A stretch of 64,000 bases of DNA from an uncultured Planctomycetales bacterium (GTDB taxonomy: Bacteria > Omnitrophota > Gorgyraeia > Zapsychrales > Fredricksoniimonadaceae): contig CAZFNI010000002.1 of the NCBI GenBank assembly GCA_964520655.1, positions 128,770 to 192,769 on the forward strand. The letters are read 5' to 3'. The position numbers were made by a program, and so were the translations under genes. Under the pieces are notes generated by a model. The model saw only the letters and a list, made by a program, of their open reading frames with translations. It was not told where the DNA came from and did no database searches. Positions 1 to 17,910 of the stretch are shown in pieces. Positions within the stretch are counted from its first letter, which is position 1. Each line of letters begins with the position of its first letter.

Positions 1-1076
1 GTCCCAATTTCCGCTTTTAAAGACGATAAAAACGCTGACCGAGGATCTCTTGATCCATCAGCTAAAAATGAAAAATGTTCCATTGGCCCGTCTTTTTCTT
101 TCATAACATGCAAAGAATATTGAAAAGCAATTCGTTGATACGGCCTCGTTCCATCATAAAGTGGTATGGCCGGATTAAAGGTTTCAAAATCAAGATAATA
201 TAAAGGATATTTTAAAGTCCGAAGAAACGATTTTATTTCCTCATGATCAGCATGGACGCTGTTCTGCTTGATCGTGTGTCTTTGAATTTGCTGTTTATCC
301 GTCAGTTTATAATCCGCTGGTATTTCTTCTATGGTTTTAATTCCTTGCTGTAATAATTCAAACTTTTTCTCCTTCCCTAGCCAATACAGATTAAAAATAT
401 TTCTCTGGGGCAAAAAAGACCAGCATTGATCTTTTAACGGACACTCATATGGCTCTAAACACTGCATCCCGATTGACACATCCGGGCAGTTCTTTTGCGC
501 AATGGTGCGAAACATCTCCTCAATTCTTGCGGGAATCTGATTAGAAATAGCATTAACTTGATCTGAAATATCCTCGATAAGAAATAATTCGTTTAAATCC
601 AACTCCCCATCCCTCACATATTCATTATTAAGATGTATCAAATGACATTTTCGAATTTTTTGTCCGGCTTTCTCACAACAATATTTTTGGAACGCCACAT
701 CCAGAATATGCTCATCTTTAACACTCGTTGTGCTTTTAACTTCAACGATGTCCCAGAAATAATGATTGACCGGGTTTAAGATGTCAATTCGTGAATACAG
801 CTCATTAGCTAGAATACTGGCTTCAAATAATGGCTTTCTCTGCAAAAGCAAATTCTCTGTCTCAGAAATACTTTCCTTAAAATTGTTGTATGGAATATTT
901 ATCCCTTGCGAGAACATTTTTTTTGCCAATTCGCCAACCTCGTGGCCTTGGTCAAAAACAAATTTCGTTTCGGGATCAGTCGGTGGGATTTTTGATTTAT
1001 CGTTGAATGATATCCAGAGGTATTTATGACATTGTAGTCCGGTGAGATATTTGGATTTGGTGAGTAAAGTGCCCAT
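1..1076 (-). CDS. DUF2779-family protein with N-terminal PD-(D/E)xK (Cas4/RecB-like) nuclease-like region and Cys cluster; 3' end cut by window edge
   Basis: Not in the ORF track because it runs off position 1; found by manual minus-strand translation. Start is an ATG whose complement lies at 1074-1076. Translation: MGTLLTKSKYLTGLQCHKYLW...DIVEVKS...CPDVSIGMQCLEPYECPLKDQC...YPLYYLDFETFNPAIPLYDGTRPYQRIAFQYSLH. The YYLDFET and P(Y/F)QxxFQYSLH motifs are the hallmark of DUF2779. It begins 17 bp after the gajB-like stop, on the same strand. Confidence 0.6.
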   Translation of the reverse strand, partial: MGTLLTKSKYLTGLQCHKYLWISFNDKSKIPPTDPETKFVFDQGHEVGELAKKMFSQGINIPYNNFKESISETENLLLQRKPLFEASILANELYSRIDILNPVNHYFWDIVEVKSTTSVKDEHILDVAFQKYCCEKAGQKIRKCHLIHLNNEYVRDGELDLNELFLIEDISDQVNAISNQIPARIEEMFRTIAQKNCPDVSIGMQCLEPYECPLKDQCWSFLPQRNIFNLYWLGKEKKFELLQQGIKTIEEIPADYKLTDKQQIQRHTIKQNSVHADHEEIKSFLRTLKYPLYYLDFETFNPAIPLYDGTRPYQRIAFQYSLHVMKEKDGPMEHFSFLADGSRDPRSAFLSSLKAEIG

Positions 1077-1092
1077 GTTAAACAATTCATTA

Positions 1093-2208
1093 TCAATTTT
1101 GGACTATAAGTCTATTATCCACATATTCTATAATTCCATCGATATTTTCATCATCCGCGTAATTATAAACAATCCCCACACTGTATTTCGCTCTTGTGAC
1201 TGCAACATAAAACTTGCTCCGACTCGTTGGCGCTAATTCTGACCCATTATTCTTAATCCAATTCATAATAGGCTTTGTTGGATAAATCAAAACACGCTCA
1301 AAAGTGGATCCCTTGGAATTTCCATAATTAATAATGGCACATTGTTTTTTAGTACGTGTTTCTTTGATGCTGTCGCGCAACTGAACACAGCAAGAATACT
1401 CGGCGAAATAACTATCAATATCGTCCTCACGGACAAAAAAGACCCCATCGTGATTTGTAGAAATGTTCTGACCAGAATTTGTTGGCGCATGATCAGGAAA
1501 TATTTTGTTAGCAAAATCACATATTTTCTGATTGCTCCTGTAATTTATTGTCAAAGAGTCACGGTCGATCTCGAGATTCTTTTGAATCTTGCTATCATCA
1601 AAGAAATAAACAATTTGAGACTTCTTAAATTGCTTATTTTTTGAAGAATTGTTTGTTGAGTAAGTTCCCTGCCTCGGGTCTCCAACCAACACAATTCTGG
1701 ATGAAGAAGCAAAAAGTAATTTCAAAAGCTCCAAATCATACCCGGCTAAATCTTGGACTTCGTCTATAAAAATATATGGATAGATTCTCGTCAATCTATT
1801 AATGACGTCGCCATTATTTTGTTTATCGCATTTTAAAACGAACTTTGAAAGCTTGTCTGAATATATTCTATAATTATGATCAAAATAATATTTTTCTACT
1901 TCTGATTCCCTTGTAAATTTCTTTGACTGTCCACTTACGAGCGATAACCCATTTACTCGTCCTTCGAATATGCCACCTTGATATGGCCTAACGCCATGTT
2001 CTAATAGGAAAGAAAACCACGTCTGGATAGTGACATTCGCGGGTACACTACCGCTTTCAAAAATAAACTTCCCTCTGATCTCTTCCTCGTTCGCTTCGGT
2101 AAAAGTAGTAACAAGAACATTCTTATCCTTAACCTTCAAGGCCTCTTTTACCAAATAAGTTGTTTTGCCCGAACCTGCGGCGGCAATCACCAATTTATTC
2201 TTGCACAT
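1093..2208 (-). CDS. gajB: Gabija GajB-like UvrD/PcrA-type SF1 helicase (compact, 371 aa)
   Basis: Walker A AAAGSGKTT at the N-terminus, DExx box IFIDEVQDL, motif VI VAVTRAKYSV; overlaps the upstream OLD-family gene by 14 nt. Confidence 0.55.
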   Translation of the reverse strand: MCKNKLVIAAAGSGKTTYLVKEALKVKDKNVLVTTFTEANEEEIRGKFIFESGSVPANVTIQTWFSFLLEHGVRPYQGGIFEGRVNGLSLVSGQSKKFTRESEVEKYYFDHNYRIYSDKLSKFVLKCDKQNNGDVINRLTRIYPYIFIDEVQDLAGYDLELLKLLFASSSRIVLVGDPRQGTYSTNNSSKNKQFKKSQIVYFFDDSKIQKNLEIDRDSLTINYRSNQKICDFANKIFPDHAPTNSGQNISTNHDGVFFVREDDIDSYFAEYSCCVQLRDSIKETRTKKQCAIINYGNSKGSTFERVLIYPTKPIMNWIKNNGSELAPTSRSKFYVAVTRAKYSVGIVYNYADDENIDGIIEYVDNRLIVQN

Positions 2209-3850
2209 ACTCCCACTCTATTGCGTCTAAAATATACTGGGGTAATTTCACATCTTCGTTCGTATCAAATATTCTTAAAGCACAATCCGTTTTATTAGTC
2301 ACCATGTAATTGCTTATCGCGGACTGATCAGGATATTTTGTTTCATCAATATTTAAGGCACCTCTCAGGACAGCCAATTGTTCTTTATTAGCCTCGACTA
2401 TTTGAGGCTCTAAAGTCTTAAGGTCATTTCTTTGATCTGTACAAATTTTTATTGTTGGAGAATTTACATATTGCTGATATTTCTGTGTAACGTTTTTGTC
2501 AAAAGCCCCGTCATTGTCCGTCACAACTACTACGGGCTTTCTTATCTTTTCAGCAATTTCTAAGAATCTCAAAAATGATGTTCCCACAGAGATAACGTCC
2601 ACTTCATCTTCAATGGGTAAATTTCTTTTACTTTTTAAATATGCTTTTTGAACAATTAATTCATCTGAAGGCCCTTCAACAAGGATCGCTTTCCTGCATA
2701 AAATTAACCTCAACGTATCGTATCCGGCGAGTTTCTCGAAATACTGCTTCGTTTTCTCATCTAAATCCGTAATCCGAACTTCATTTCGTTTTAATGTCAC
2801 TCTGTCAAAATTAAGCAAAATTAAGCTCCCTAGCCCAAGTTTATTTGCCACAAAACTGCTATGCGTGGAAACCATAATTTGCTTTCCTTCATGTCCATCT
2901 TTGAGATGTTTAATCAATTTATTCAGTTTTGAATGAGATAGATGATTTTCTGGTTCCTCAAGCAACAAAATATTGGCTTCTTGTGATTTTTTGTGACTGA
3001 GGGCAAGCCTTGTCTTAACCAAGCACTGCTCCCCTCTACCCGCGTAATTAAAGGGAATTTCATCTAAATAGGTTGTTAAGCTTGTTTCCCAAGCTGTTTT
3101 TGTCGACACATCGACCGACAATTCTACTTTTTTATCAGATATCTGTTTTTGTTCTAACTCTTTATTTATTTCTTTTACAGCGGCGTCATCTGCGAAAGAA
3201 TCTTTTAGCCTTCTATGTGCCTGGGATATTTTTACTTTATGTTCGTCGGAAAGAAGATCACGAATAATGCGAGAAATATAAACATCTGATCCATTCTGAT
3301 AGCGACTATTGGAGGAATCAATTAGTGCGGATTTGAATGGTATCGTTCTTGGAGTCAACCTATCGTCACGGGCAAAAGAAGACCATGAAAAATCATAATA
3401 TTCTATAGGAAGCGAACTTATTTTGTCTCCGCCATCTACTAAGATTTTATATTCATTCTGATATTTTTCGTTGAAAAACATCTTGAATCGAACCCCACAT
3501 TCTTTTTCCTTTATGCTATTTCCGTTTCCTTCAAAAAGCGCCTTAATTGAATCATCTTCAATTTCAAAAAATAATTCGATCTGAATGTGCGGAGGTTGCA
3601 AGCGATTGCTAGTCGCTAAACTATCTAAATAATTTCTTATAACTTTATTGTTGAACAAAGATTGTGTTAGTTCGGTACCCACATATTTGCCATAAATCCA
3701 GCCGGAAAGAGCCAAATGGATCGCTTCCAAAATAGTAGATTTACCCGCTTCATTATCGCCAACTAAAATATTAAGATGCTTGTTAAGCTCTAGACAGAAT
3801 TTGCCTTCAAAGCATTTAAAATTTTCGATAATAATTTTCTTTATGTGCAT
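2195..3850 (-). CDS. gajA: Gabija GajA-like OLD-family ATPase with C-terminal Toprim nuclease domain
   Basis: N-terminal ABC/AAA ATPase typical of OLD family (IIIENFKCF...LVGDNEAGKST); C-terminal Toprim motifs ILVEGPSDE and VVVTDNDG; a class-2 OLD gene immediately followed by a UvrD-like helicase is the Gabija architecture. Confidence 0.6.
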   Translation of the reverse strand: MHIKKIIIENFKCFEGKFCLELNKHLNILVGDNEAGKSTILEAIHLALSGWIYGKYVGTELTQSLFNNKVIRNYLDSLATSNRLQPPHIQIELFFEIEDDSIKALFEGNGNSIKEKECGVRFKMFFNEKYQNEYKILVDGGDKISSLPIEYYDFSWSSFARDDRLTPRTIPFKSALIDSSNSRYQNGSDVYISRIIRDLLSDEHKVKISQAHRRLKDSFADDAAVKEINKELEQKQISDKKVELSVDVSTKTAWETSLTTYLDEIPFNYAGRGEQCLVKTRLALSHKKSQEANILLLEEPENHLSHSKLNKLIKHLKDGHEGKQIMVSTHSSFVANKLGLGSLILLNFDRVTLKRNEVRITDLDEKTKQYFEKLAGYDTLRLILCRKAILVEGPSDELIVQKAYLKSKRNLPIEDEVDVISVGTSFLRFLEIAEKIRKPVVVVTDNDGAFDKNVTQKYQQYVNSPTIKICTDQRNDLKTLEPQIVEANKEQLAVLRGALNIDETKYPDQSAISNYMVTNKTDCALRIFDTNEDVKLPQYILDAIEWEYVQE

Positions 3851-3985
3851 ATTTTATCCTGCAAGCTCGCCGCGGAAGGCTTTGGCTAAATAGCCAATCG
3901 GCCTTATAGTTTTTATACTGCCACTAGTTAACAGAACGTGATCAATTTGTTAGAATAGGGCTCGTAACCGAAAGGAGCCTTATTC

Positions 3986-4261
3986 ATGAAATACCGACAA
4001 TGGACCAGCAAACAAAAATCACAGATCGTACTTGAGGGCCTCTCCGGACAGATCGACATCACCAAACTATGCCAGAAATACCAAGTCTCGCAAGCGCAGT
4101 ATTACAAATGGCGCGACGCTTTCCTGGTCAACTGCCACCAGTCCTTTGAAGTCAAAAAACAGTCACAAAAAGAACAATATCTGGAAGGCAAAGTTCAAAA
4201 ACTGACCAAGATTATCGGAGATCTGACCATTGAGTTAAAAAAAAGCGAATACGAGCTATGA
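3986..4261 (+). CDS. IS3-family transposase OrfA (HTH)
   Basis: 91 aa; MKYRQWTSKQKSQIV...YYKWRDAF is typical of IS3/IS911 OrfA; its TGA overlaps the ATG of orfB (ATGA). Confidence 0.85.
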   Translation: MKYRQWTSKQKSQIVLEGLSGQIDITKLCQKYQVSQAQYYKWRDAFLVNCHQSFEVKKQSQKEQYLEGKVQKLTKIIGDLTIELKKSEYEL

Positions 4262-5046
4262 AACGAACCCGCGCCCAATCAACCATACAAAGAGACCTGG
4301 AACTGCTGGCCGTCATCAATCCGATCAAAACCGACCATCCCCTCTGGGGGTATCGTCGTGTCTGGGCGTATTTAAAATACCGCCAGAATTATTCCGTCGC
4401 CATTAATCGCGTGTATCGTATTATGAAAGAGCATCAAATGATCGTCACCAAACTTCAACGGTTACGCGCTCGACGCGGCCCCATGCGCTCAAAGCCACGA
4501 TCACATCAGCCCAACCACTTTTGGGGTATCGACATGACCAAGATAAAAATCTATCCCTGGGGCTGGCTGTATCTGTGTATCGTTCTCGATTGGTGCACCA
4601 AAGAAATCGTTGGTTATTCGTTAAGCATTCAGTCCAAAACCGATGACTGGTTATCAGCCGTTGAAATGGCCGTCAATAACCGATTCCCTAACGGCATCAA
4701 ATCCGATTTAAAAAAACAGTTGTTCTTGATCTCAGATAACGGCTGTCAGCCGACATCCCAGCGGTTCATGATGAACTGTTCGCTTTTGGGCATCAAACAA
4801 ATCTTTACAACTTGGTCTAATCCCAAAGGCAATTCCGACACCGAACGCGTCATGCGAACACTCAAAGAGGACCTGGTCTGGACCTATGACTGGGATAATC
4901 CCTTCGCCTTCAGCGAAGCCTTGAGAAACTGGATCGTCGCTTACAATACCGACTATCCCCATCAGTCCTTAAATAACATGACGCCGACGCAGTATTACGA
5001 ACAATTTAACAAAGAACCCGTTCTAACAAATTTTTCCCTTGCTTAA
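4258..5046 (+). CDS. IS3-family transposase OrfB (DDE integrase core)
   Basis: 262 aa; rve-type integrase catalytic core (WGIDMTKI..., LISDNGCQPTS, ...E). Confidence 0.85.
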   Translation: MKRTRAQSTIQRDLELLAVINPIKTDHPLWGYRRVWAYLKYRQNYSVAINRVYRIMKEHQMIVTKLQRLRARRGPMRSKPRSHQPNHFWGIDMTKIKIYPWGWLYLCIVLDWCTKEIVGYSLSIQSKTDDWLSAVEMAVNNRFPNGIKSDLKKQLFLISDNGCQPTSQRFMMNCSLLGIKQIFTTWSNPKGNSDTERVMRTLKEDLVWTYDWDNPFAFSEALRNWIVAYNTDYPHQSLNNMTPTQYYEQFNKEPVLTNFSLA

Positions 5047-5063
5047 GTAGTGGCATTACATTT

Positions 5064-6542
5064 TTACTTCCTCAATTTCTCAATAATCCCCTTAAAACTT
5101 TCCAACCCTGCTTCGATATTCTCAATAATCTCAACCGCAAGTACATCTGGATCGGGGAGATTGTCGAGATCAGTTAAGCTTTTATCCTTAAGCCAGAAAA
5201 TATCGAGGCTGGTCTTATCCCGGGCGACGATCTGGTCATAATTAAACTTACGCCAACGGCCTTCGGGATTTTTCTCCGACCATGTTTCCTTACGCTTGTG
5301 GCGGTTGGCTGGGTTATAACACTCACTGAACTCTTTAAGATCTTCAAACTTCAATGTATTCTTCTTAAGTGTGAAATGTATATTCGTCCGGAAGTCGTAA
5401 ATCCACACTTCTTTGGTTTGCGCGTTCTTGCTTGCTGGCCGATTATCAAAAAAAATGACATTTGCTTTCACTCCCGGCTTATAAAAAATCCCCGTCGGTA
5501 AGCGTAGAATGGTATGCAGGTCAGTTGTTTCTAAAAGCTTCTTACGCACGGTCTCACCCGCACCTCCCTCAAAAAGAACGTTATCGGGCACAACAACCCC
5601 AGCCTTACCATCAACTTTAAGCATGGTGTGGATATGCTGGACAAAATTGAGTTGCTTATTTGAAGTTGTCGCCCAAAAATCCTGACGATTATAGACAAGA
5701 TCTTCAGATTCTTCTTCACCTTCCTCATTAGTAAAGGTCATACTGCTTTTTTTACCAAATGGCGGATTCGTTAAAACATAGTCAAATCGCAGACCATTGT
5801 CCGCAATTAAGGCATCTGATCGCTCAACCGGTGGTAAATTGTCAAGATCGCCTATGTTATGCAAAAATAAATTCATCAAACACAAACGTGCTGTACTCTG
5901 TACAATCTCCCATCCTTTAAAAGTCTTAAATTTTAAGAATTGAAGTTCTTCTTTATTAAGTTGATAGTTATTTTTATTGGTAATGAAGTCGTAGACCGCA
6001 AGAAAAAAACCACCCGTTCCACATGCTGGATCAGCAATCATCTTTTCAGGTTCGGGGCGCATACATTCAACAATGGCTCGAATCAATGCACGAGGAGTAA
6101 AATACTGCCCTGCACCGCTTTTTGTATCCTCAGCATTTTTCTCAAGCAAACCTTCATAAATATCACCTTTAATATCTGCCCCTATCTTGACCCACATTTC
6201 TTGATCAATCATCTGGACAATACGGTAAAGCTTTGCTGGGTCGGTAATTTTATTTTGTGACTTAAAGAAAATCTTGCCGAGCATTCCGCTTTTCTGACCA
6301 AATTCACGTAAAAGCGTGACATAGTGCGTCTCAAGTTCTGCCCCACGCTTGCTGACCAATGTTTCCCAGCGATATTCCTTAGGAATATCCATTTTGCGAT
6401 TATAAGGCGGCTTTGAATATTCATCAGCCATCTTAAGAAACAACAAATATGTCAATTGCTCCAAATAATCGCCATATCCCACGCCATCATCTTTAAGCAC
6501 ATTACAAAACGACCAAACTTTTGATACCAATGCCTCAGTCAT
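5064..6542 (-). CDS. hsdM: Type I restriction-modification N6-adenine DNA methyltransferase subunit
   Basis: HsdM N-terminal domain (VWSFCNVLKDDGVGYGDYLEQLTYLLFLKMADE) and NPPFG catalytic motif; overlaps hsdS by 8 nt. Confidence 0.9.
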   Translation of the reverse strand: MTEALVSKVWSFCNVLKDDGVGYGDYLEQLTYLLFLKMADEYSKPPYNRKMDIPKEYRWETLVSKRGAELETHYVTLLREFGQKSGMLGKIFFKSQNKITDPAKLYRIVQMIDQEMWVKIGADIKGDIYEGLLEKNAEDTKSGAGQYFTPRALIRAIVECMRPEPEKMIADPACGTGGFFLAVYDFITNKNNYQLNKEELQFLKFKTFKGWEIVQSTARLCLMNLFLHNIGDLDNLPPVERSDALIADNGLRFDYVLTNPPFGKKSSMTFTNEEGEEESEDLVYNRQDFWATTSNKQLNFVQHIHTMLKVDGKAGVVVPDNVLFEGGAGETVRKKLLETTDLHTILRLPTGIFYKPGVKANVIFFDNRPASKNAQTKEVWIYDFRTNIHFTLKKNTLKFEDLKEFSECYNPANRHKRKETWSEKNPEGRWRKFNYDQIVARDKTSLDIFWLKDKSLTDLDNLPDPDVLAVEIIENIEAGLESFKGIIEKLRK

Positions 6543-7893
6543 GCTTCTTTTTTCCTTTCGACTTAACCTCTAAAGCTTCTTTTTCAGCTTTTATCCTTTG
6601 GAGCAAGGCCTTGGCTGAATTATCACCGGATGTTAAATTTTTGTGTTCTTTACGCCATTGCTCCGTTAAGTTGCCTTCAAATGCCTTCTTTAAAACACTC
6701 TGTCGAAGGACTTCGGCTTTTTGTATACTTTCATTAATGGTTAATTCAAGAGAATCGCAAAACGAAAAACGAGATTCTACATCCTCAACTATTTTTAACT
6801 GATCTTCCAAAGAACAAAAAGGAATTAGCAGATCTTTAATCTCTTCAGAATTAATATTATGAACTCCACTTGTCGATTTCGCTTTGCCTTCAATCTGATT
6901 CCTTAATTGTGGCGAAGATAGAATATACTGTAAATAATAGCTATTCAGATTTGATTTTAGCCTAAGCCGTATTAGATAACCTGCATACAGAGCATGAGTA
7001 TCTTTCTTGGTTACAATAGCTGTTTTACCTACGAGAGAAACACTGCCGTTAGAACGAATCATCAGCAAATCGCCTTCTATAAGTGAATATTTATTCACTT
7101 CATCATTAGTAAAATAAGCATACTTTAAATCAGACAGGTCAATATATTGACTCCCAATATTCGGTATTCTTAAAACAGCTTTCCCGATAGAATCTTTTCT
7201 ACATTTACGTGCCGTCCCATATTTAGGTTGTTCAATAAAATTTCCAAATTTTACAAAATCCTTCCCTATTGCTATTTGGTTTAACACCGAATAACGATAA
7301 ACTTTCAACTGCTCTTTAGCTTTTTTAAAATTTTCGATGGCGTTGTCGAGATCGGAAAAAAATTCTTCGATTACAGAAATTATGCGTTCTTGCTCGGCTG
7401 TAGGGGCAATTAATATTGGAATCACATTTACTTTTGATAAAGGGATTGAGGGCAAGGTGGTAGCATGAGCAATGTGATTGAAGTCAACTGTCTTAAGCCA
7501 ATAATATATCCAGTCACTTAAAATACCATCGTAGGGCATGGCAATTGCGATATGACTGACAACATACATATCCGTCTTTAATACTGCTCTTTGATTTAAT
7601 AGGCTTGATGCACCACTTTTAGTAAATAGAACCGTCCCCTTTGGAAAAAGTTTCATTCTTTCAATAGCACTATGATTAATGCGATCAGCTGTATCCATAA
7701 TATATTTACTTATCCCTAATCGCCCCATATCTTGGACACGGACAAAAGGATATGTGCCGTTATCGAAAAATTGATTTCCTTGAGGAGCAGGATTACCTGC
7801 ACCCAATTTTGTAATATTTCCAAGAGGAGCTTGTGCCCAATTTTCAGGAAGCATACTTCGATCATCTAATAAAACTGTTGAATTCTTTTTCAA
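6535..7893 (-). CDS. hsdS: Type I restriction-modification specificity subunit with two target-recognition domains
   Basis: 452 aa with two TRD-like halves separated by a coiled-coil conserved region; sits between hsdR and hsdM with 4-8 nt overlaps. Confidence 0.85.
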   Translation of the reverse strand: MKKNSTVLLDDRSMLPENWAQAPLGNITKLGAGNPAPQGNQFFDNGTYPFVRVQDMGRLGISKYIMDTADRINHSAIERMKLFPKGTVLFTKSGASSLLNQRAVLKTDMYVVSHIAIAMPYDGILSDWIYYWLKTVDFNHIAHATTLPSIPLSKVNVIPILIAPTAEQERIISVIEEFFSDLDNAIENFKKAKEQLKVYRYSVLNQIAIGKDFVKFGNFIEQPKYGTARKCRKDSIGKAVLRIPNIGSQYIDLSDLKYAYFTNDEVNKYSLIEGDLLMIRSNGSVSLVGKTAIVTKKDTHALYAGYLIRLRLKSNLNSYYLQYILSSPQLRNQIEGKAKSTSGVHNINSEEIKDLLIPFCSLEDQLKIVEDVESRFSFCDSLELTINESIQKAEVLRQSVLKKAFEGNLTEQWRKEHKNLTSGDNSAKALLQRIKAEKEALEVKSKGKKKHD

Positions 7894-10634: not shown

Positions 10635-10636
10635 AT

Positions 10637-11353
10637 TTATTCCATTTTTCCTTCATCAGCAAAACTGAAAAAATTATCACCGCCGATAATAATATGATCC
10701 TGCACTTTTATTTCCATTAGCTTCCCAGCATCACAGAGTTCTTTGGTAAATTTCTTATCTTGGGCGCTAGGCGCAGTTTCTCCGCTGGGATGGTTATGAA
10801 CACAAACGATTGATTTGGCGAATTTCTGTAAAGCGGTGTGAATTATTTCGCGGATAATTGGAAAGGCATGATCGACCGTTCCAACAGCGGCATCGGAAAT
10901 ATCTATGATTCGATTATTGTTATCAAGATAGACAACCTTAAAGACTTCGGTCTTAAGGTCGCGCATGTGGGGCAAAACGATGTCAACAATGTCTTTGGCG
11001 GAAGCGATTTTCTGCTTGCCCGGCGACACAACATCCTGCTGATAGCGCCGCCCGATCTCAAGCGCGGCCTGAATGTGGGCAATCTTAGCACCACCTAAAC
11101 CTTTGAATTCCTTCCAATCGCGGGTGTCGGTATGGGCCATGCTCCTGAAGGAGCCGAATTTACTCAGGATTTTGCGGGAAAGCTCCACGGCGCTGGTTCC
11201 GGCCGTGCCGGTGCGCAACAAAATAGCCAAGAGTTCTGAATTGCTTAAAGCACCCGCGCCTTTCTTGAGCAATTTCTCTCTTGGCCTGTCATCCAGCGGC
11301 CATGATTTGATGCCTGATAATTTTAAATTTTTCGTCACGTTTTCTGAACCCAA
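10637..11353 (-). CDS. radC: RadC-like JAB/MPN domain protein (UPF0758)
   Basis: LSNSELLAILLRTGT... helix-hairpin-helix region and JAMM motif HNHPSG; 3 nt after the hsdR stop. Confidence 0.8.
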   Translation of the reverse strand: MGSENVTKNLKLSGIKSWPLDDRPREKLLKKGAGALSNSELLAILLRTGTAGTSAVELSRKILSKFGSFRSMAHTDTRDWKEFKGLGGAKIAHIQAALEIGRRYQQDVVSPGKQKIASAKDIVDIVLPHMRDLKTEVFKVVYLDNNNRIIDISDAAVGTVDHAFPIIREIIHTALQKFAKSIVCVHNHPSGETAPSAQDKKFTKELCDAGKLMEIKVQDHIIIGGDNFFSFADEGKME

Positions 11354-11470
11354 TTCTTCCTAAAAAAGCGTCTGTTTTAATTCTGTGATAGCTACCCACC
11401 CCTCACTCGTATTAAAAATCTTATAACCTACATAACTCCAAATATTTATACTGAAATAACATCATCATTT

Positions 11471-11502
11471 TTGTCACAAAAAGCATATACTTTTTGTGAC
11501 AA
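11471..11502. promoter_or_regulatory. Perfect palindrome TTGTCACAAAAAG-CATATA-CTTTTTGTGACAA (13-bp arms); candidate operator/terminator at the distal boundary of the AbiE cassette
   Basis: Seen directly. Lies 14 bp past the phosphoesterase stop and ~120 bp upstream of the radC start. A near-identical palindrome sits at 13699-13728 on the other side of the cassette. Confidence 0.4.
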
Positions 11503-11515
11503 GATTTGGCACCAT

Positions 11516-12052
11516 CTAGTTAACCTTACCCTGCTTTTCTTCCTTCAGAAAATCAGAAATAGCAGAGGTGATCTGTTTAAAAGCGATCGGATAAAAATCC
11601 CAAACATCAACAGACAGATTGACAATCAAAGATTTTTTATCCAGCCGTTTCACCTTGTAATGCTGATGCACATGGCCGCAGAAATTCCAAGGCACCGATA
11701 GATCAGCATCTTCCGGCTTATGAATCATACAAATATCTTTAGCGCCATAATGGATATACATCTTTGTTATGATCGCATTGAGACTGTTGTTACGGTCATG
11801 ATTACCTTTAATGAATATGAACTTGCCGTTTAGCCTCTTTTCAAAGTTCAGGGCTCTCTGCTCTCCGCCTTCTTTTCCGCCTTTAAAAATAAAATCACCC
11901 AGAAAAAACACAGTATCCTCAGACTTAACCCGCTCATTGTGTTTGCGGATAATCGTTTCATTCATTTCCTCAACCGTTGCGAAAGGCCTGCCGCAATAGC
12001 GAATTATATTGAAATGTGAAAAATGATAATCGGATGCCCACCAACAATTCAT
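11516..12052 (-). CDS. Small calcineurin-like metallophosphoesterase
   Basis: 178 aa with phosphoesterase motifs SDYHFSH, LGDFIFKGG and GNHD; 3 nt after the AbiEii stop, same strand. Confidence 0.65.
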   Translation of the reverse strand: MNCWWASDYHFSHFNIIRYCGRPFATVEEMNETIIRKHNERVKSEDTVFFLGDFIFKGGKEGGEQRALNFEKRLNGKFIFIKGNHDRNNSLNAIITKMYIHYGAKDICMIHKPEDADLSVPWNFCGHVHQHYKVKRLDKKSLIVNLSVDVWDFYPIAFKQITSAISDFLKEEKQGKVN

Positions 12053-12054
12053 GA

Positions 12055-13128
12055 TCAGATCCTGTTAATTTTTTCTTCAATGATCCTCAGTTCTTCTATA
12101 ATGCGCTCAAATGATGGCGGCTCCTCAAAAAACATTTGTTGCATCTGACGGTAATCATTCTTTAATTGGCTCATTTGATCATCGCGAGGCAATAACCGCA
12201 AACCTCCCGGCTTTGCAGTGTCATAATGCGCCCAGTTCGCTTTAAAAAATAAAGTTTTATGATCCGCAACAGACTTAAGCAATGAAATATTTTCCAAAGC
12301 GCGTTTATAAATAGGTGAATCCGCCAGCGCGTATATGTCGTAATAATGCCGCGACATCCGTAGTGGTACATTCTTCTCAGGCGGATAATGATAAATCATA
12401 TGCAAGATCGTTGCTTTCTCCCAGAAAGTCCGCTCTGCGGCTAAAACACGTACAGAAGCCCCTTCAATGGCCGTCTCACCTGAAACATTGGTGACATACG
12501 GAGAAATGGTCGCGGTTTCAACTGGCCAATGATCGGATCGTGCGCCGAATTCAATTTTGACCGATGATCGCACATAGCTTTCCGCATTACTCGTCATGGC
12601 ATGAGGGAAAATAAACAAAACTGTTTGTCCGTCCTCATCTTCTGAATCCACTTCAATCTTCCACTCCTCTTTGGCACCCAGAACCGCCGTAACCGCTTGC
12701 CTTAAAGCAGGAAGAATTGTTTGATCAATGCTCTTCTTACAAACCAGTTGTAATTTTTCAAGCCGTTTCTGATTCTCTTTATTGCTTTCTTCTTTATCCG
12801 GCTCAATCGCTTCGGACTTCAATAAAAAAGGCCTCTCTATTGAAATGTCAATGTCCTCTGAAAAACGTTTAATCACGTTATAGCATTTTGAAAGGGATGT
12901 CCCTCCTTTAAATGTCAAATGCTCGCCTATTTTTGGTAATGAAAAAAGGATTTTGAGTATCCAGCACACCCAGAAATCCTTTTCGACTAATTGCGGCATG
13001 ATATTTAAATTAGCCGCAGTCACTTCAAAATAAGCGCGTTTATCTTTGTGCGGTAATAATGCGAATTTATTCATAAACTTCTCATTCTTGTAATTGCCGA
13101 AATATCGTTCCAATCCATGCGGGGGCAT
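12055..13128 (-). CDS. abiEii: AbiEii/AbiGii-family nucleotidyltransferase toxin (DUF1814)
   Basis: FKGGTSLSKCY...RFSEDIDISI nucleotidyltransferase motif typical of AbiEii; overlaps the upstream AbiEi-like gene. Confidence 0.75.
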   Translation of the reverse strand: MPPHGLERYFGNYKNEKFMNKFALLPHKDKRAYFEVTAANLNIMPQLVEKDFWVCWILKILFSLPKIGEHLTFKGGTSLSKCYNVIKRFSEDIDISIERPFLLKSEAIEPDKEESNKENQKRLEKLQLVCKKSIDQTILPALRQAVTAVLGAKEEWKIEVDSEDEDGQTVLFIFPHAMTSNAESYVRSSVKIEFGARSDHWPVETATISPYVTNVSGETAIEGASVRVLAAERTFWEKATILHMIYHYPPEKNVPLRMSRHYYDIYALADSPIYKRALENISLLKSVADHKTLFFKANWAHYDTAKPGGLRLLPRDDQMSQLKNDYRQMQQMFFEEPPSFERIIEELRIIEEKINRI

Positions 13129-13681
13129 AACGAAGGTCAGCGATCAGCTCGCGCTTATCATCCTTGGTTAATCTCTTTCTAAGTATTTCAATTGTTTTAT
13201 CACTCACGTGATCTTTGCCTAAATACCGCAAGGCTTGAATAACTAAACCGCTAACATGCCCCGCGGTAGCCATATTCTTGGGTGTGGTTCTTTTTAAAAC
13301 AATTTGCTGATTTTTGATCTGCACCTTACGATTAGCGCCGTCTGTCAAAAAAATAATTCTTGCCGGTACCTGCTCGGTCAAGCCCAGCAGATTAGCGGCA
13401 TATGCTCCGGAAGGCTGAATTTTCAGATTATCCCTTCCTGCCAATGCTTGAGCAAGACGGTCATAATTCGCAGGCAGATCTCCCAAAACAGGATGTTTTT
13501 CTGGGTAGTCATACAAACCGCGAGCAAGTCGGCGAATTGTTCCAGAATCTGCCAAACGTTCCAAAGCTTTGGCCACGGCGGAGCGGTTTCCGAGGTCAAG
13601 AAAGTGAGTTGAGGTGAACACCCAACCCCTTCTTCTTCCATAAATTTTACTAACTACTCTATTATAAATGCTTTGCGTCAT
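13082..13681 (-). CDS. abiEi: AbiEi-like antitoxin / transcriptional regulator (type IV TA)
   Basis: 199 aa; N-terminal winged-HTH-like region (GWVFTSTHFLDLGNRSAVAKALERLADSGTIRRLARGLY) and the characteristic pairing with AbiEii. Confidence 0.7.
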   Translation of the reverse strand: MTQSIYNRVVSKIYGRRRGWVFTSTHFLDLGNRSAVAKALERLADSGTIRRLARGLYDYPEKHPVLGDLPANYDRLAQALAGRDNLKIQPSGAYAANLLGLTEQVPARIIFLTDGANRKVQIKNQQIVLKRTTPKNMATAGHVSGLVIQALRYLGKDHVSDKTIEILRKRLTKDDKRELIADLRYAPAWIGTIFRQLQE

Positions 13682-13698
13682 TTATATCACCTCTTATT

Positions 13699-13728
13699 TG
13701 TCGCAAAAAGTATATAGTTTTTGCGACA
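13699..13728. promoter_or_regulatory. Palindrome TGTCGCAAAAA-N8-TTTTTGCGACA, 18-47 bp upstream of the abiEi start; candidate AbiEi autoregulatory operator
   Basis: Seen directly; consensus shared with 11471-11502: TGTC(A/G)CAAAAA...TTTTTG(T/C)GACA. Confidence 0.45.
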
Positions 13729-14117
13729 TACTGTCAAGCCATTTTTAGGAGAGGAATCGACGAAAATAACATTCTTTAATGTTCATTAAATAGTGAACAT
13801 TGGCACAAGCTGAACATTCGCAAGGGGCATTTCAATGGCGCAAAAAGTGGATAGTTTCTGTGGACACATTTATGTCAATTCATGTCACTCAAAAACAGCC
13901 TTTTTGACCACCGCAGGAGCATGTAGAATGCCTCTAAATACGCCTATTCTCCGTCCAGAAACGATTGTTTTTACCATTCTGAATAAGATTGCCACGGATG
14001 CCGATTTGAGTGACATTGACATCAATTTTTTGGGCCATAATCACTGACAACCTGCGCCTCGCCCGACCCGCATCCCCACACCCCCCCTGGAAGGACCCGT
14101 AAACAAAAAACCTATTT

Positions 14118-15248
14118 CTATTTATTGTTCCCTACCGGCCATAAAATATCATAATGAACACTGCGTCCCTTGCCGGACAATTGGCGCAATAACTTTTTCT
14201 CAAGCATGTCCGAAATCTCACGAAACGCGGTCGCCCTGCTAGTGCTTGCCAAGCTCACATATTTGCGGGTTGTTAATCCTCCGACAAATTCACCTTGCCC
14301 TTCATCCAACATACGGTTAAGGACTTTCTTTTGACGCTCATTAATCTCGGTCTGCGCATGTTGTGCCCAAAAATCCGCCTTGAGCAATACTTTACCAATA
14401 ATTTTATCAGACCTTTGAATAGTACGTTGATAGCACCCTAAGAACCAAAGAAGCCAGTTCGTCAAATCCAGATTGTCAGCCTTGGAACATTTTTCAAGAA
14501 TTTTATAATAACTGTCCCTTTCTTCCATGATCTGCGATGAGAAACTATAATATCGCACCTTAAGCTTTTCGTCCTGCGCCAAGGCCATATCTGTTAGACT
14601 CCGTGCAATGCGCCCATTACCATCTTCGAAAGGATGGATTGTCAAAAAATAAAAATGCGCTATCCCTGCACGCAAAAGTCCATCTGTGGTTGTGAAGCTC
14701 GCCTTCCACCATTGAAAGAATTTCCGCATTTCGGCTTCAACGGCTTCTCCCGGAGGCGCTTCAAAATGAACCCGTTCACGCCCCATAGGCCCAGACACAA
14801 CACGCATCGGCTCTTGGCCTCTCCATTGACCTACGCGAATCTTATGAAGTCCCGAGTAGCCTGTTGGAAAAAGCGCCCCATGCCAACCTTGTAATCGATC
14901 CCTATTAAGGGTCTTAGCGTAATTTTGAGTGGCATCCAGAATAATCTCAACGATGCCATCGACAGATCTGGATGATCGTCCTAGCCCAACTGTGGGAAGA
15001 CCCAAATGTCTTGCGACAGATGATCGCACCATTTGAAGATTAAGTAGTTCCCCCTCGATTTCCGATGTCTTAATGACTTCCTCAATTAAAATATCAGCTT
15101 GTGCCTCTTCTTCAAGCTTAAACCCCAATCGCTTAACGCGACCCAATAGATCACCCTGAGCAAGCCTCGCCTGTCCCAAAATCGACAAAAGGGTATTGCT
15201 GTCCCATGTGAATTCCGGCCAAGAATGATGTTGCCATATGTATTTCAT
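14118..15248 (-). CDS. Fic/DOC family protein (putative AMPylator)
   Basis: Canonical Fic motif HPFEDGNGRIARSL inside FYFLTIHPFEDGNGR. Confidence 0.85.
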   Translation of the reverse strand: MKYIWQHHSWPEFTWDSNTLLSILGQARLAQGDLLGRVKRLGFKLEEEAQADILIEEVIKTSEIEGELLNLQMVRSSVARHLGLPTVGLGRSSRSVDGIVEIILDATQNYAKTLNRDRLQGWHGALFPTGYSGLHKIRVGQWRGQEPMRVVSGPMGRERVHFEAPPGEAVEAEMRKFFQWWKASFTTTDGLLRAGIAHFYFLTIHPFEDGNGRIARSLTDMALAQDEKLKVRYYSFSSQIMEERDSYYKILEKCSKADNLDLTNWLLWFLGCYQRTIQRSDKIIGKVLLKADFWAQHAQTEINERQKKVLNRMLDEGQGEFVGGLTTRKYVSLASTSRATAFREISDMLEKKLLRQLSGKGRSVHYDILWPVGNNK

Positions 15249-15432
15249 TAATACCTCCTGAAGCGATTAAGCCTCATAATCGCTTCACTATATGAGGCAA
15301 TTATACTATTTAATCGCATCAATAACAAATTATTTTTTTATTTTAAAGGTGAGATAAAGAAGGGTTAATCAATACCAACAACAGCCTCAATAAGCTCCTG
15401 CATGGTGCGTCTATATTGTGGCCAATGGCCAC

Positions 15433-15625
15433 CCATATGTCTCCAAAAAGACCTTCAAAATTTACCTCCTAGAAAAGACATATAGATAGTGCCGTTTCCA
15501 CAGTTTCTAATATAAATTGACGTCCAGCCATATGTTTCTAAAAACACTTTCACAAACTTCTCCTAGTATAAATAGTGCCAGGTTCTATTTAATCGTGCGC
15601 TGTCCCCTATTTTTCAACCACCAGT
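15433..15625. repeat. Two tandem ~95-bp degenerate repeat units in AT-rich intergenic DNA; third partial copy at 16713-16762
   Basis: CCATATGTCTCCAAAAAGACCTTCAAAATTTACCTCCTAG...ATAGTGCCGTTTCC (15433-15527) versus CCATATGTTTCTAAAAACACTTTCACAAACTTCTCCTAG...ATAGTGCCAGGTTC (15528-~15625). Confidence 0.5.
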
Positions 15626-15769
15626 AAAGTATTTCCAACAATCTTTAACTAAAGCAATTATTCCCCATCCACATATCCCCCATATAAAATACTTCAAATA
15701 ATTACAGGTTTCTGCTATTTCAGCTAAATGCCTCTCAATTTGTTGAAGTGTATATTGTTTATCATCCAT
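15614..15769 (-). CDS. 51-aa peptide with a C-terminal transmembrane helix
   Basis: GGAGG is 6 nt upstream of the ATG (complement at 15767-15769). MDDKQYTLQQIERHLAEIAETCNYLKYFIWGICGWGIIALVKDCWKYFTGG; begins 14 nt after the stop of the 284-aa gene. Confidence 0.35.
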   Translation of the reverse strand: MDDKQYTLQQIERHLAEIAETCNYLKYFIWGICGWGIIALVKDCWKYFTGG

Positions 15770-15783
15770 ATAAACCTCCATTC

Positions 15784-16638
15784 TCATTGACTCTCTAGAT
15801 ACCCCTTCAATTTCCACTGTTCCAAAATATAGACTTTAAATCCCTCCACTGGTTTACTTCCACATATTCGAGCCAATTCCTCTCCTGTTTTTGTAAGCAA
15901 CACATTTCCAATATTCATTTCATTCTCTTTATCTTTAGACATTTTACACTCAACAATTTGTCCATAATATGCCACCTTAAAACTCTTAGGTAGCTTGGTT
16001 CTTAAAAAACCTGCTATTGCATTAAATTGAATCAATCCAATACTGTCCAAATGCGTCAAAGTATTAAAATTAATCCCATTCTTAATATAAATTTCATTAT
16101 GTTCATCATAAACAAGAGGAACTATATTCCCTATATGCCATCCAAAACCACAAAGTTTTGTAAATAAAATTGCATCACCCTTATCTAGGTCAGATAGAAA
16201 ATTAACAGTTCGTTTAGAGAAACTACCTGGCGAATTAGCTTCTCCTGCAAGGATACGAGACCATAACGATTGCATTTCTATATCAGATATAATTCTGCAT
16301 TTATCAAAAAAATTAGTTAGCCAATCTACTTCAATTTTATCCGGGCTAGAATCTTCCTTTAGCTGTGGCAAGGATTGTTCTACAATTTGTTCCATGATTA
16401 ATTGTTTTTTTGCCTCTTCTTCAATAAATCGCCTTACAGCTCTCTGTTGAAGCTCTGCAACTTGAATTATTCCTTGAGTTTTTATTAAATTTGCTTCAAC
16501 TTCTGCTTTAGCTATTCTTTTAATCTGGTACGGCCTAAACAATCCTCCAACTGCTTCAGAAACCTTCTCAATCAAAGTATTTGCAGGCTTAGAATAGTCG
16601 CCCAAATTTATAAGTGCTTTTGAAGTTTCGTCGCTCAT
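15784..16638 (-). CDS. Uncharacterised 284-aa soluble protein, resembles DUF2806-type defence-island proteins
   Basis: Complete ORF in an AT-rich block; segments LIEKVSEAVGGLFRPYQIKRIAKAEVEA and SLWSRILAGEANSPGSFSKRTVNFL resemble what I recall of DUF2806. No catalytic motif recognised. Confidence 0.45.
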   Translation of the reverse strand: MSDETSKALINLGDYSKPANTLIEKVSEAVGGLFRPYQIKRIAKAEVEANLIKTQGIIQVAELQQRAVRRFIEEEAKKQLIMEQIVEQSLPQLKEDSSPDKIEVDWLTNFFDKCRIISDIEMQSLWSRILAGEANSPGSFSKRTVNFLSDLDKGDAILFTKLCGFGWHIGNIVPLVYDEHNEIYIKNGINFNTLTHLDSIGLIQFNAIAGFLRTKLPKSFKVAYYGQIVECKMSKDKENEMNIGNVLLTKTGEELARICGSKPVEGFKVYILEQWKLKGYLESQ

Positions 16639-16712
16639 AACCTTCTCAAATTATTTATTGATAGCAAATTCTTCTTAGAAATTCTACCAAAGTCAGCAGC
16701 CAATGCTTCCAT

Positions 16713-16762
16713 CGGCCAACCGTAGGTTTCTAAAAATACTTTCAGAATTTAGTCCTCACAGT
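16713..16762. repeat. Third copy of the intergenic repeat (GGCCAACCGTAGGTTTCTAAAAATACTTTCAGAATTTAGTCCTCACAG)
   Basis: Aligns with the 15433/15528 units; sits upstream (minus strand) of the 284-aa gene. Confidence 0.45.
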
Positions 16763-17424
16763 ACATTTGTTTTGCAATTATTAAAATTCCTAAATGCTAA
16801 ATCATTTACCGAGATCCAAACACCATAAAACAAACACATTAAATTAAGAAGAAATATAACAGACAAATAAAAAGTTATTTTAATAGCAAGCAATAAATAA
16901 ATTTTAATAAACAAATAAATCCCCAACATCACAAACAAAGACAGAACTGCAAGAACAACAAAGACTGCAAACGGCACAAACATAAGCCATATCAATTTTT
17001 TTCGAAATTCAATTCTTGATTTTAGATAATCGTAATAGTCCTTCAAAGCATTCTTATATAAAGACAAATTCTTTCGATCCCTTTCCTTAAAAGATTCAAT
17101 GTTATCAAACACATCTTTCTCTAACCAGCTATTAGGCTCTCTATCCACTTTAAGTACTTGCATTAAATATGCTTTTTCTTTGGGATCAACTAAAGGATGT
17201 TCAATACGATATATAATCCAATTTCTAAATCGGTTATAGGAATCAGTTAAATCTGTTGAAATAGCCTGCATGCGAAATAAACCAAAAACACCTGACACAG
17301 TCGCAAACGTAGCTGAAAGCATAAGTAATCCAGAATAATACCCATTAAAAATGCTTATCAATTCCTTTGCTTCTAAAATTCTTAAATAATTATAAACACT
17401 GCAATAACATATAAATGAACACAT
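16756..17424 (-). CDS. Uncharacterised membrane protein (N-terminal TM, central soluble segment, two C-terminal TM helices)
   Basis: Hydrophobic stretches LLMLSATFATVSGVFGLF and LIWLMFVPFAVFVVLAVLSLFVMLGIYLFIKIYLLLAI; AT-rich codon usage unlike the flanking genes. Confidence 0.45.
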   Translation of the reverse strand: MCSFICYCSVYNYLRILEAKELISIFNGYYSGLLMLSATFATVSGVFGLFRMQAISTDLTDSYNRFRNWIIYRIEHPLVDPKEKAYLMQVLKVDREPNSWLEKDVFDNIESFKERDRKNLSLYKNALKDYYDYLKSRIEFRKKLIWLMFVPFAVFVVLAVLSLFVMLGIYLFIKIYLLLAIKITFYLSVIFLLNLMCLFYGVWISVNDLAFRNFNNCKTNVL

Positions 17425-17458
17425 ATAGTGAAAACCTTATTAAATTAAAGACAGCTCC

Positions 17459-17860
17459 CTATTTCTTAAATAACGATGAATACTTAGCCCAATACCCGCT
17501 CATGGAGAATACCTGCAATAAAACCATCGAAAGCGGGAGAACTAAATTGTTCACGCCGGGCGTCAAACAACCATGGAATAATAGAATATGCAAGGTAACC
17601 GGTGCAATAACAACCAGTGCCAGCGGCGCTGCTAGGCCGGTTAAGAGCATCAGTCCGCATATGACTTCCGTCATCTTTAATAAAGGGAAGAAATATCCCG
17701 TTGCCATGATCCCCTTCATAAAATCCATCGCCGCTTGCGGCATGGCCTGATCCTGCGGCATCGGCATAAGCCCAAAAGCAATGGCCAGCCCCATGCCTCC
17801 AAAAACAGCATAGATCAATCCTAAAATAATTCGTGCGGCTAATTGAACTTTAGTTATCAT
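17459..17860 (-). CDS. DoxX-family membrane protein
   Basis: 133 aa, four TM segments with DoxX-like pattern (RIILGLIYAVFGGMGLAIAFGL). Confidence 0.75.
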   Translation of the reverse strand: MITKVQLAARIILGLIYAVFGGMGLAIAFGLMPMPQDQAMPQAAMDFMKGIMATGYFFPLLKMTEVICGLMLLTGLAAPLALVVIAPVTLHILLFHGCLTPGVNNLVLPLSMVLLQVFSMSGYWAKYSSLFKK

Positions 17861-17910
17861 GTCGATCTCCTTCTCTTAATAATTAGGGACAGCCCCCTAT
17901 TTCATAAAAA

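Follow-up and report, generated by a model that had tools for sequence, protein, structure and literature searches.

How several anti-phage systems come to lie side by side in one bacterial genome is the question raised by the first 17 kb of a 64,000-nucleotide (nt) stretch of DNA from an uncultured Omnitrophota bacterium (GenBank assembly GCA_964520655.1, contig CAZFNI010000002.1, positions 128,770 to 192,769), which at its full length is here called the window. An earlier reading of the letters alone (the sequence-only reading) had described positions 1-17450 as a dense island of at least five anti-phage modules, had ascribed it to the general clustering of defence genes, and had put forward the uncharacterised genes embedded at 15.25-17.45 kb as candidates for new immunity functions. 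Profile searches (PADLOC, Pfam, NCBIfam and PHROGs) recovered each of the named modules in its place, and the density of the region was borne out: the PADLOC check that had been proposed recognises four systems, namely Gabija, type I restriction-modification (R-M), AbiE and a SoFic-like Fic protein, which are joined by a DUF2806 gene of the Belisama type. This defence content is ordinary, and the interest of the locus lies in its mode of assembly. Instead of a diffuse cluster, the evidence points to a site-specific tandem array in miaB, the gene of the tRNA ms2i6A37 methylthiotransferase; with a probability of roughly 0.78, positions 1-16755 are the promoter-proximal part of this array, its units being integrative elements whose integration we infer to have been carried out by a large serine recombinase (LSR).

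Three copies of the miaB start partition the region

The 5′ end of miaB, here called a head, comprises a ribosome-binding site (RBS), a start codon and codons for KVFLETYG, and it occurs in the window in three diverged copies (16755-16717, 15566-15525 and 15473-15430). A search with a degenerate pattern for the nine-codon head (AARGTNTTYYTNGARACNTAYGG) gave 3 matches, all on the minus strand, where 0.01 would be expected. Each copy has its own RBS and start codon, the copies differ mainly at synonymous positions, and every head breaks after GGNTG, the next base being G. The sequence that follows each head is here called a tail. The junctions and the elements between them are listed below in the direction of miaB, and the peptides given for the tails are their translations in the frame of a recombinase gene that is described further on.

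16717..16755, minus strand: head A, directly following the gene of a 222-amino-acid (aa) membrane protein; 23 nt agree exactly with the native start of miaB in a related genome (locus L026)
16655..16716, minus strand: tail A, a diverged type 1 P′ arm; recombinase frame G-RWKHWLLTLVEFLRRICYQ*
16716..15525, minus strand: element E1, the DUF2806 cassette, 1192 nt, bounded by heads A and B
15525..15566, minus strand: head B, the distal end of E1; RBS, GTG start, KVFLETYG, broken after TG
15474..15524, minus strand: tail B; recombinase frame GRQFILETVETALSICLF*
15524..15430, minus strand: element E2, a 95-nt vestige without cargo, consisting of tail B and head C
15430..15473, minus strand: head C; RBS aggagg, TTG start, KVFLETYG, broken after TG at 15430
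15365..15429, minus strand: tail C, a type 2 P′ arm with which E3 begins; recombinase frame G-HWPQYRRTMQELIEAVVGID*
from 15429 leftward past the left end of the window, minus strand: element E3, at least 15.4 kb, with Fic, the AbiE trio, RadC-hsdRSM, IS3, GajAB and DUF2779

Head A is probably the ancestral chromosomal 5′ end of the gene. The junctions also redraw the limits of 1-17450 that had been proposed for the island: the strain-specific part ends at 15429/15430, which is the right boundary of E3, the clear array ends at 16755, and the left boundary of E3, like the body of miaB, lies to the left of the window, beyond position 1.

E3 is absent from sister strains

Two Logan contigs from sister strains (L001 and L003) show 100% identity to the window between 16769 and 15430, and past 15430 they read MKVFLETYG-CQMNEYDSELVRSIL..., which is an intact MiaB N-terminus. 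In these strains E1 and E2 are present and miaB is intact where E3 starts in the window; since E3 is absent from strains that have E1 and E2, it is taken to be the most recent, strain-specific acquisition. The comparison of island boundaries with relatives, which the sequence-only reading had called for, therefore finds a variable E3 beside an E1 and an E2 that are shared with sister strains. The contig of the window encodes a MiaB of its own (P0161, MNEYDSELVRSILRKANYEF...) that matches the continuation seen in the sister strains, so the body of miaB is on the same contig. Close homologs of this MiaB carry Candidatus Omnitrophica names and thereby place the lineage.

The same junctions recur in other metagenomes

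A remnant-specific pattern (a head followed by TGG) was found at nine JGI metagenome loci, and a relaxed search detected at least two heads in five of the nine (L029, L030, L031, L033 and L035), which hold arrays of two or three cassettes; the arrays of L031 and L035 end in native miaB. Every head is followed by one of two conserved types of tail, and at least 14 such junctions lie outside the window. Viral contigs gave no match to the miaB head pattern and none to the type 2 tail pattern. The cargo genes are nearly all co-oriented with miaB, and those that could be annotated encode ParE (twice), a zeta toxin, Doc, a RhuM-Fic fusion (twice; PADLOC PDC-S23), a DUF4160/DUF2442 pair and DUF4062-HATPase_c_4, while many other cargo open reading frames (ORFs) match no family.

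The junction at tail C is 87.6% identical to the junction of another of these loci (L034) and is related to one in L030 (L030_3024). In L034 this type 2 junction is followed directly by AbiEi-AbiEii-phosphoesterase. The two elements are otherwise collinear, with an alignment gap of 1.56 kb that corresponds to the Fic module of the window (13819..15380, minus strand), and from this alignment the module appears as an extra insertion in the window relative to L034.

Serine recombinase genes that run into miaB

In the +1 frame relative to miaB, the tails are open and look like coding sequence (RWVQYCT..EFLRRIY*), without an upstream start codon; their variability is 0.42 at third codon positions compared with 0.27 and 0.28 at the other two. 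A source for this frame is provided by LSR genes at related loci, one encoding a 595-aa protein (L037-L040) and the other a 561-aa protein (L091/L092), both with the domains Resolvase, Recombinase and Zn_ribbon_recom. In these two independent related genomes the LSR gene ends 4 nt inside the called miaB, and its last approximately 40 codons overlap the element-supplied head (MEEQQ...VLLETYGCQMNEYD) in the frame of the tails. On an IMG/VR contig (L045) that also encodes a terminase small subunit and a replication protein, a recombinase that is 67% identical reads ...CFCAPSDA-RWRQCYIPILQLLGDVHMKA*, its ORF running through a mimic of the head (RVLLRTFGC) and on through tail-like sequence; from its sequence, this arrangement would be the attP configuration. 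The frame of the tails, the overlap at L037 and L091 and the read-through in L045 together indicate that the tails are the C-terminal coding ends of the recombinase in its excised form. The recombinase frame also superseded the idea that a tail might be what remains of miaB codons 11-30 after a frameshift.

Among distant serine recombinases in IMG/VR, which were found at 44 loci, the mimic of the miaB head is confined to the clade of L045 and L046. One IMG/VR contig (L058) has a native-looking miaB N-terminus (FFVRTYGCQMNEHD) at about 1098, some 1.9 kb upstream of a serine recombinase gene at 3001-4194; that recombinase is distant (26% identity) and the arrangement is unlike those of L037 and L045. 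Locus L037 itself is a recombinase-bearing miaB island of another Omnitrophota-like genome, in which a TIR-domain gene (1214-1915; CAP12-PCTIR_TIR; PADLOC PDC-S35 2e-86) is wedged between hsdS and hsdR. None of the papers searched links LSRs with miaB.

A model of site-specific stacking and its rivals

According to the proposed model, all elements would insert at a single site, after the TG of the Cys codon at about codon 10 of miaB. Each element would begin with a tail, which corresponds to the P′ arm of attP, and would end with a miaB head of its own (RBS, start codon and about ten codons) that re-creates both a functional miaB 5′ end and an attB-like site; because that site is re-created, further elements could stack. 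Along miaB, on the minus strand, the order in the window would be head A, E1, head B, E2, head C, E3. The LSR gene would occupy that end of an element which is proximal to miaB; its last codons would pass through attP and overlap the supplied head in another frame, and integration would exchange the C-terminal 17-20 residues of the recombinase for a few residues read from miaB. Features expected of LSR elements are present in the form of attL-type junctions with a conserved arm and an intact target in sister strains. On this model an LSR would have moved the elements of this genome, and cassettes lacking an LSR gene would move in trans.

A more speculative extension, which on balance is doubtful, would have LSRs run an integron-like capture platform, in which mini-cassettes without a recombinase are moved in trans and come to be stacked upstream of miaB. 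Each mini-cassette would consist of a tail, one toxin-antitoxin or abortive-infection (Abi) gene and a miaB head, read-through transcription would express cargo and miaB alike, and the exchange of the recombinase C-terminus could switch directionality or expression.

Several observations weigh against integration by an LSR as set out above. No recombinase of any kind was found within window positions 1-64000, the left end of E3, where one would sit, being beyond the window, and no recombinase gene with a type 2 tail, the type found at the E3 junction, was recovered. E1, E2 and most of the metagenomic cassettes have no recombinase and bear no sign of their origin or mobility. The gene call of P0161 starts at an internal Met, which is compatible with an adjacent recombinase and equally with none; such calls were considered as a marker of an adjacent recombinase and dropped, two of four cases having one and two of four being plain miscalls. 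Finally, the source is probably a metagenome-assembled genome (MAG), in which a chimeric join at 15430 is formally possible. Such a join would bring E3 from another organism, and in keeping with this no Logan contig spans 15430 into E3 and GajA is without an exact match on record. A chimera is nevertheless very improbable, as the junction has a canonical head and tail, L034 independently supplies a junction that is 87.6% identical and is then followed by the same AbiE operon, and the MiaB of the same contig is identical to the sister-strain sequence.

The other rivals concern how the array was built. It might have been assembled by a tyrosine integrase, as in islands at dusA, which likewise restore the 5′ end of their target (PMC4482086), or by another recombinase such as a Y1/HUH transposase; in both L026 and L032, the first head has a Y1_Tnp gene 1.3-1.5 kb upstream. 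Among the loci examined, however, a gene abutting miaB is never that of a tyrosine integrase and in two independent genomes is that of a serine recombinase, and the coding frame of the tails continues a serine recombinase ORF, which makes this alternative unlikely. The Y1/HUH transposase in particular was set aside as the cassette recombinase, as no Y1_Tnp homolog is present in the window and HUH transposition would not account for the duplication of heads. Still less likely is a single contiguous defence island at 1-17450 that arose by generic clustering and has AT-rich unknowns embedded in it. The modules are indeed adjacent and co-oriented, and GC is under the genome level throughout, yet three miaB-head junctions partition the region, there are strains with E1 and E2 but without E3, and the 222-aa gene, which no clear junction encloses, has kept its place near miaB in a relative. 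The least probable of these accounts is that the 5′ end of miaB was multiplied locally, by duplication or unequal crossing-over, and that the cargo entered between the heads in some unrelated way. In its favour, the heads are direct tandem copies and E2 has only 95 nt; against it, the differences between heads are mostly synonymous, as expected from separate origins, and the tails that follow them are conserved in unrelated metagenomes and in a viral attP.

Relation to known systems

Of the known systems closest to the array, the staphylococcal cassette chromosome elements (SCC/SCCmec) depend on the Ccr LSRs, target the 3′ end of rlmH, stack in tandem and include pseudo-SCC elements that have no recombinase. 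The miaB array resembles them in its association with an LSR, in having its single site at one end of an RNA-modification gene, in the re-creation of that site and tandem stacking, in the presence of cassettes without a recombinase, and in accessory, defence-related cargo. Unlike SCC, it targets the 5′ end of miaB and not the 3′ end of rlmH, it belongs to an Omnitrophota-like lineage, its elements must supply an RBS, a start codon and about ten codons, and its type of recombinase ORF runs through attP and overlaps the supplied head in another frame.

Islands at dusA are moved by a tyrosine integrase and replace the 5′ end of a tRNA-modification gene with element sequence (Farrugia et al. 2015, PMC4482086), and the MiaB-like gene rimO is cited in the same work as a mobile-element target in Polaromonas. 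Insertion in the 5′ end of a tRNA-modification gene and an element-borne replacement are common to both systems, whereas the miaB array is associated with a serine recombinase, and tandem cassette arrays are not described in PMC4482086. With sedentary chromosomal integrons such as the superintegron of Vibrio cholerae (Darracq et al., bioRxiv 10.1101/2024.07.02.601686) the array shares small, co-oriented, mostly single-gene cassettes rich in toxin-antitoxin and Abi genes, and DUF2806 (Belisama) is a cassette in both. Unlike in integrons, IntI, attI and attC are missing, no tyrosine recombinase was found among the proteins scanned, the repeats at miaB consist of a gene 5′ end and an arm that encodes the C-terminus of a recombinase, and the site is used by small cassettes and by large multi-system elements alike. 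The miaB array is identical to none of the three; what is distinctive about it is the end of the gene that is targeted, an attP that is dual-coded inside the recombinase gene, and the presence of 1-kb cassettes and a 15-kb island at one site.

The assembly of defence islands is usually inferred from clustering statistics, and here the seams can be read at base resolution. A single miaB site with a self-renewing attachment site and a candidate family of recombinases would explain how single-gene cassettes and multi-system islands of 15 kb come to be piled up together. The junctions also provide a handle for searches, in that a head (GARACNTAYGGNTG) followed by GCCRWTGG can be used to harvest cargo genes, many of them without a family; such cargo offers firmer ground on which to look for candidate immunity genes than do the two ORFs singled out in the sequence-only reading. 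An attP that lies within the recombinase gene and is dual-coded with the N-terminus of the target may interest developers of serine integrases as tools, since the sequence gives the enzyme as well as its attB and attP.

Gene content of E3

The features of E3 that lie within the window are, from left to right:

3..1076, minus strand: DUF2779 gene, a Cas4-like PD-(D/E)XK nuclease (Pfam PF11074 2.4e-20; weak PADLOC match to Cas4, 2.7e-6; DIVEVK motif)
1093..2208, minus strand: gajB, the short UvrD-like helicase of Gabija (PADLOC GajB 1.1e-131, full length; Pfam UvrD-helicase)
2195..3850, minus strand: gajA, an ATPase with an OLD-type TOPRIM nuclease (PADLOC 1e-206, full length; AAA_15, OLD-like_TOPRIM; Walker A)
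3916..5058, plus strand: IS3-family insertion sequence with orfA (3986..4261) and orfB (4258..5046); HTH_Tnp_1 and rve domains
5064..6542, minus strand: hsdM (PADLOC MTase_I 1.7e-192; NPPF motif)
6535..7893, minus strand: hsdS (PADLOC Specificity_I 1.9e-70; Methylase_S model matched in two stretches)
7890..10634, minus strand: hsdR (PADLOC REase_I 4e-53; Pfam ResIII, EcoEI_R_C; DECH and PD-ExK motifs)
10637..11353, minus strand: RadC-family JAB metalloprotease (Pfam RadC 8e-39, UPF0758_N; NCBIfam 234 bits against a cutoff of 180; HNHPSGx7SxxD)
11469..11504, no strand: palindrome TTGTCACAAAAAGTATATGCTTTTTGTGACAA, flanked by the phosphoesterase stop and the radC start
11516..12052, minus strand: calcineurin-like metallophosphoesterase (Pfam Metallophos; phrog_547 1e-38)
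12055..13128, minus strand: abiEii (PADLOC AbiEii 6e-107; GGTSL and DID motifs)
13082..13681, minus strand: abiEi (PADLOC AbiEi 1.6e-70)
13699..13860, no strand: abiE promoter/operator-like region, with palindrome GTCGCAAAAACTATATACTTTTTGCGAC at 13699-13728 and a related copy at 13836-13860
14118..15248, minus strand: Fic protein with DUF4172, a Fic domain and a C-terminal winged helix-turn-helix (PADLOC SoFic 1.8e-43, model positions 16-347 of 361)

All listed modules are on the minus strand, IS3 being the sole exception. Catalytic motifs are intact in Fic, GajA, GajB, HsdR, HsdM, AbiEii, the phosphoesterase, RadC and DUF2779, and accordingly no sign of decay is seen in the modules; acting as their families are known to act, they would be expected to confer immunity. 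The GC content of the modules ranges from 0.34 to 0.46, and the AT-rich block noted in the sequence-only reading is real, with 0.34 for the DUF2806 gene and 0.29 for the 222-aa gene as against 0.47 for 18-64 kb. Scans of the window detected no tRNA gene and no Rfam family.

Both components by which Gabija is recognised, a GajA with an ABC-type ATPase and TOPRIM and an adjacent UvrD-like gajB, are present, their genes overlapping by 14 nt. The DUF2779 gene, readable for 358 codons from its start with its 3′ part beyond the window edge, is the left-most visible cargo of E3; it was ruled out as a third Gabija gene, GajA/GajB being near its homologs at none of 15 loci. At two archaeal MAG loci (L018, 11567-11884, and L019, 9-566) RadC-like genes adjoin DUF2779 homologs, so two accessory genes of E3 co-occur elsewhere. 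IS3 has terminal inverted repeats at 3916-3955 and 5021-5058 and is located between Gabija and hsdM without interrupting a gene. One edge is about 5 nt past the stop of hsdM and the other 66 nt upstream of where gajA starts, and the element may have displaced or replaced the Gabija promoter.

The type I R-M operon (5064..10634, minus strand) is transcribed in the order hsdR-hsdS-hsdM, with all three genes present and intact and an HsdR of the EcoEI/EcoAI-like type. The radC gene stops 2 nt before the hsdR start and is probably co-transcribed with the R-M genes; its product has no PADLOC match. The Fic protein carries the HPFEDGNGRIAR motif, of the HxFx(D/E)GNGRxxR type, and an inhibitory TSEIEG motif. 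Against NCBIfam NF046030, the Shewanella SoFic equivalog, it scores 56 bits where the cutoff is 550, and it is therefore filed as a SoFic-like Fic and not as SoFic. Overall, domain content, gene order and catalytic motifs agree with those of Gabija, type I R-M, AbiE, SoFic and Belisama, the departures from known AbiE, R-M and SoFic systems being a phosphoesterase as third gene in AbiE, a RadC gene coupled to hsdR, and a Fic protein that is only SoFic-like.

The AbiE trio and its palindromes

The antitoxin and the nucleotidyltransferase toxin of AbiE, a type IV toxin-antitoxin and Abi system, are encoded by a bicistron in which abiEi and abiEii overlap at 13082-13128, and the start of the phosphoesterase gene abuts the abiEii stop. 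This phosphoesterase, of the PdeM/phage type, is translationally coupled to abiEii, and the trio looks like a three-gene variant of AbiE. The metagenome locus L034 has a collinear AbiEi-AbiEii-phosphoesterase trio with amino-acid identities of 68/56/87% to the window, and since this is an independent element, a three-gene variant of AbiE appears to be conserved.

In AbiE systems, AbiEi autoregulates its expression through an inverted-repeat operator in the promoter. In the window, palindrome GTCGCAAAAACTATATACTTTTTGCGAC overlaps a predicted TTGACA-17-TATACT promoter and is kept in L034 with matching changes in both arms. Palindrome TTGTCACAAAAAGTATATGCTTTTTGTGACAA is a third copy of this operator-like sequence; its region is 86% identical to the abiE operator region of L034, where the copy is at 788-823 (oriented). 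From this likeness AbiEi might also regulate the radC-hsdRSM operon via the palindrome, although the sequence at 11469-11504 may alternatively be a terminator hairpin.

The DUF2806 cassette

The two genes between 15.25 and 17.45 kb that had been taken for embedded unknowns have separate settings, the DUF2806 gene being in a cassette that occurs in strains without E3, and the 222-aa gene outside the junctions. The cargo of E1 is confined to the DUF2806 gene and a doubtful small ORF:

15784..16638, minus strand: DUF2806 gene (Pfam PF10987 5.2e-39, residues 65-269)
15614..15787, minus strand: 57-aa ORF of uncertain status, with an ATGA overlap with the DUF2806 stop and a C-terminal hydrophobic segment; called as a gene in L001 and L003

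Profile scans gave no family match for the 57-aa ORF. DUF2806 defines Belisama, a validated single-gene abortive-infection system of the V. cholerae superintegron that leads to unrecoverable culture lysis at high multiplicity of infection and is toxic if over-expressed (bioRxiv 10.1101/2024.07.02.601686); Belisama is already reported by DefenseFinder (PMC12724379) but not by PADLOC-DB 2.0.0, and the stand-alone, single-gene arrangement is found in E1 as well. By its shared domain the protein in E1 is probably a Belisama-like candidate abortive-infection effector, and the gene is thus probably immune but not new, in departure from its proposed standing as a candidate for a new function.

Homologs of the DUF2806 protein number 3560 at about 60% identity and are spread across very different phyla. 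Two of three long-contig contexts place them within type I R-M operons, between hsdM-Fic and hsdS, and in the third the homolog adjoins an AAA_21 ATPase. At the homolog loci L022-L025, R-M operons are interrupted between hsdM and hsdS/hsdR by small genes (Fic, DUF2806, DUF4160/DUF2442 pairs, HicB and a YhcG-like nuclease), and the same small genes recur as miaB cassettes in L035. In an AlphaFold model of the DUF2806 protein (pLDDT 73), a mixed alpha/beta domain at the C-terminus comes after a long N-terminal helix, and no significant structural neighbour was found for the model in the PDB.

The 222-aa gene and the outer flank

Upstream of the outermost clear junction lies a gene that the sequence-only reading had likewise proposed for immunity:

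16756..17424, minus strand: 222-aa multi-pass membrane protein, no family match

Scans of Pfam, PADLOC, NCBIfam and PHROGs gave no match for this protein, and 5.8 billion proteins yielded only one homolog, at 7142-7798 of locus L026 from a related MAG, where the order is TM218 - X238 - miaB - nadA. The two proteins are 62% identical, similar to neighbouring housekeeping proteins. The sequence-only reading had named housekeeping families conserved in synteny as what would speak against its candidates; the 222-aa gene comes near to this in its kept position and its identity. With a single homolog, a kept place near miaB and a location outside the junctions, the 222-aa protein is unsupported as a defence candidate. 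The gene and its homolog both have a GC content of 0.29 in genomes of 0.43-0.49, and by this measure the gene looks compositionally foreign, though its position near miaB is kept in both genomes. Between the homolog and miaB, L026 has a gene (X238, GC 0.35) that is unrelated and matches no family.

A fourth, degenerate head/tail-like sequence, TTTTTGGAGGCATGGGGCTGGCC, is located at 17783-17805 on the minus strand within a DoxX-like ORF (17459..17860). It is 23/27 identical to junction C, where 0.05 chance matches would be expected in 64 kb. Should it be a genuine relic, it would bound an older 1069-nt cassette that holds the 222-aa gene and the remainder of the DoxX-like ORF, a reading that fits the GC content of 0.29 of the 222-aa gene; the sequence overlaps a conserved DoxX motif, and for that reason the match may be a coincidence. 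Direct repeats of 28 nt (17443-17470 and 17881-17908, 86% identical) exactly flank the DoxX-like gene, occur in only two copies in the window and would not be expected by chance, which suggests that this gene is a small inserted unit of another kind.

Elsewhere in the window, a paralog of the MiaB/RimO family at 28830..30110 has 29% identity to MiaB, and the segment 47507-61272 (minus strand) contains giant ORFs of 1272 and 3330 aa, with a strongly negative AT skew at 48-51 kb.

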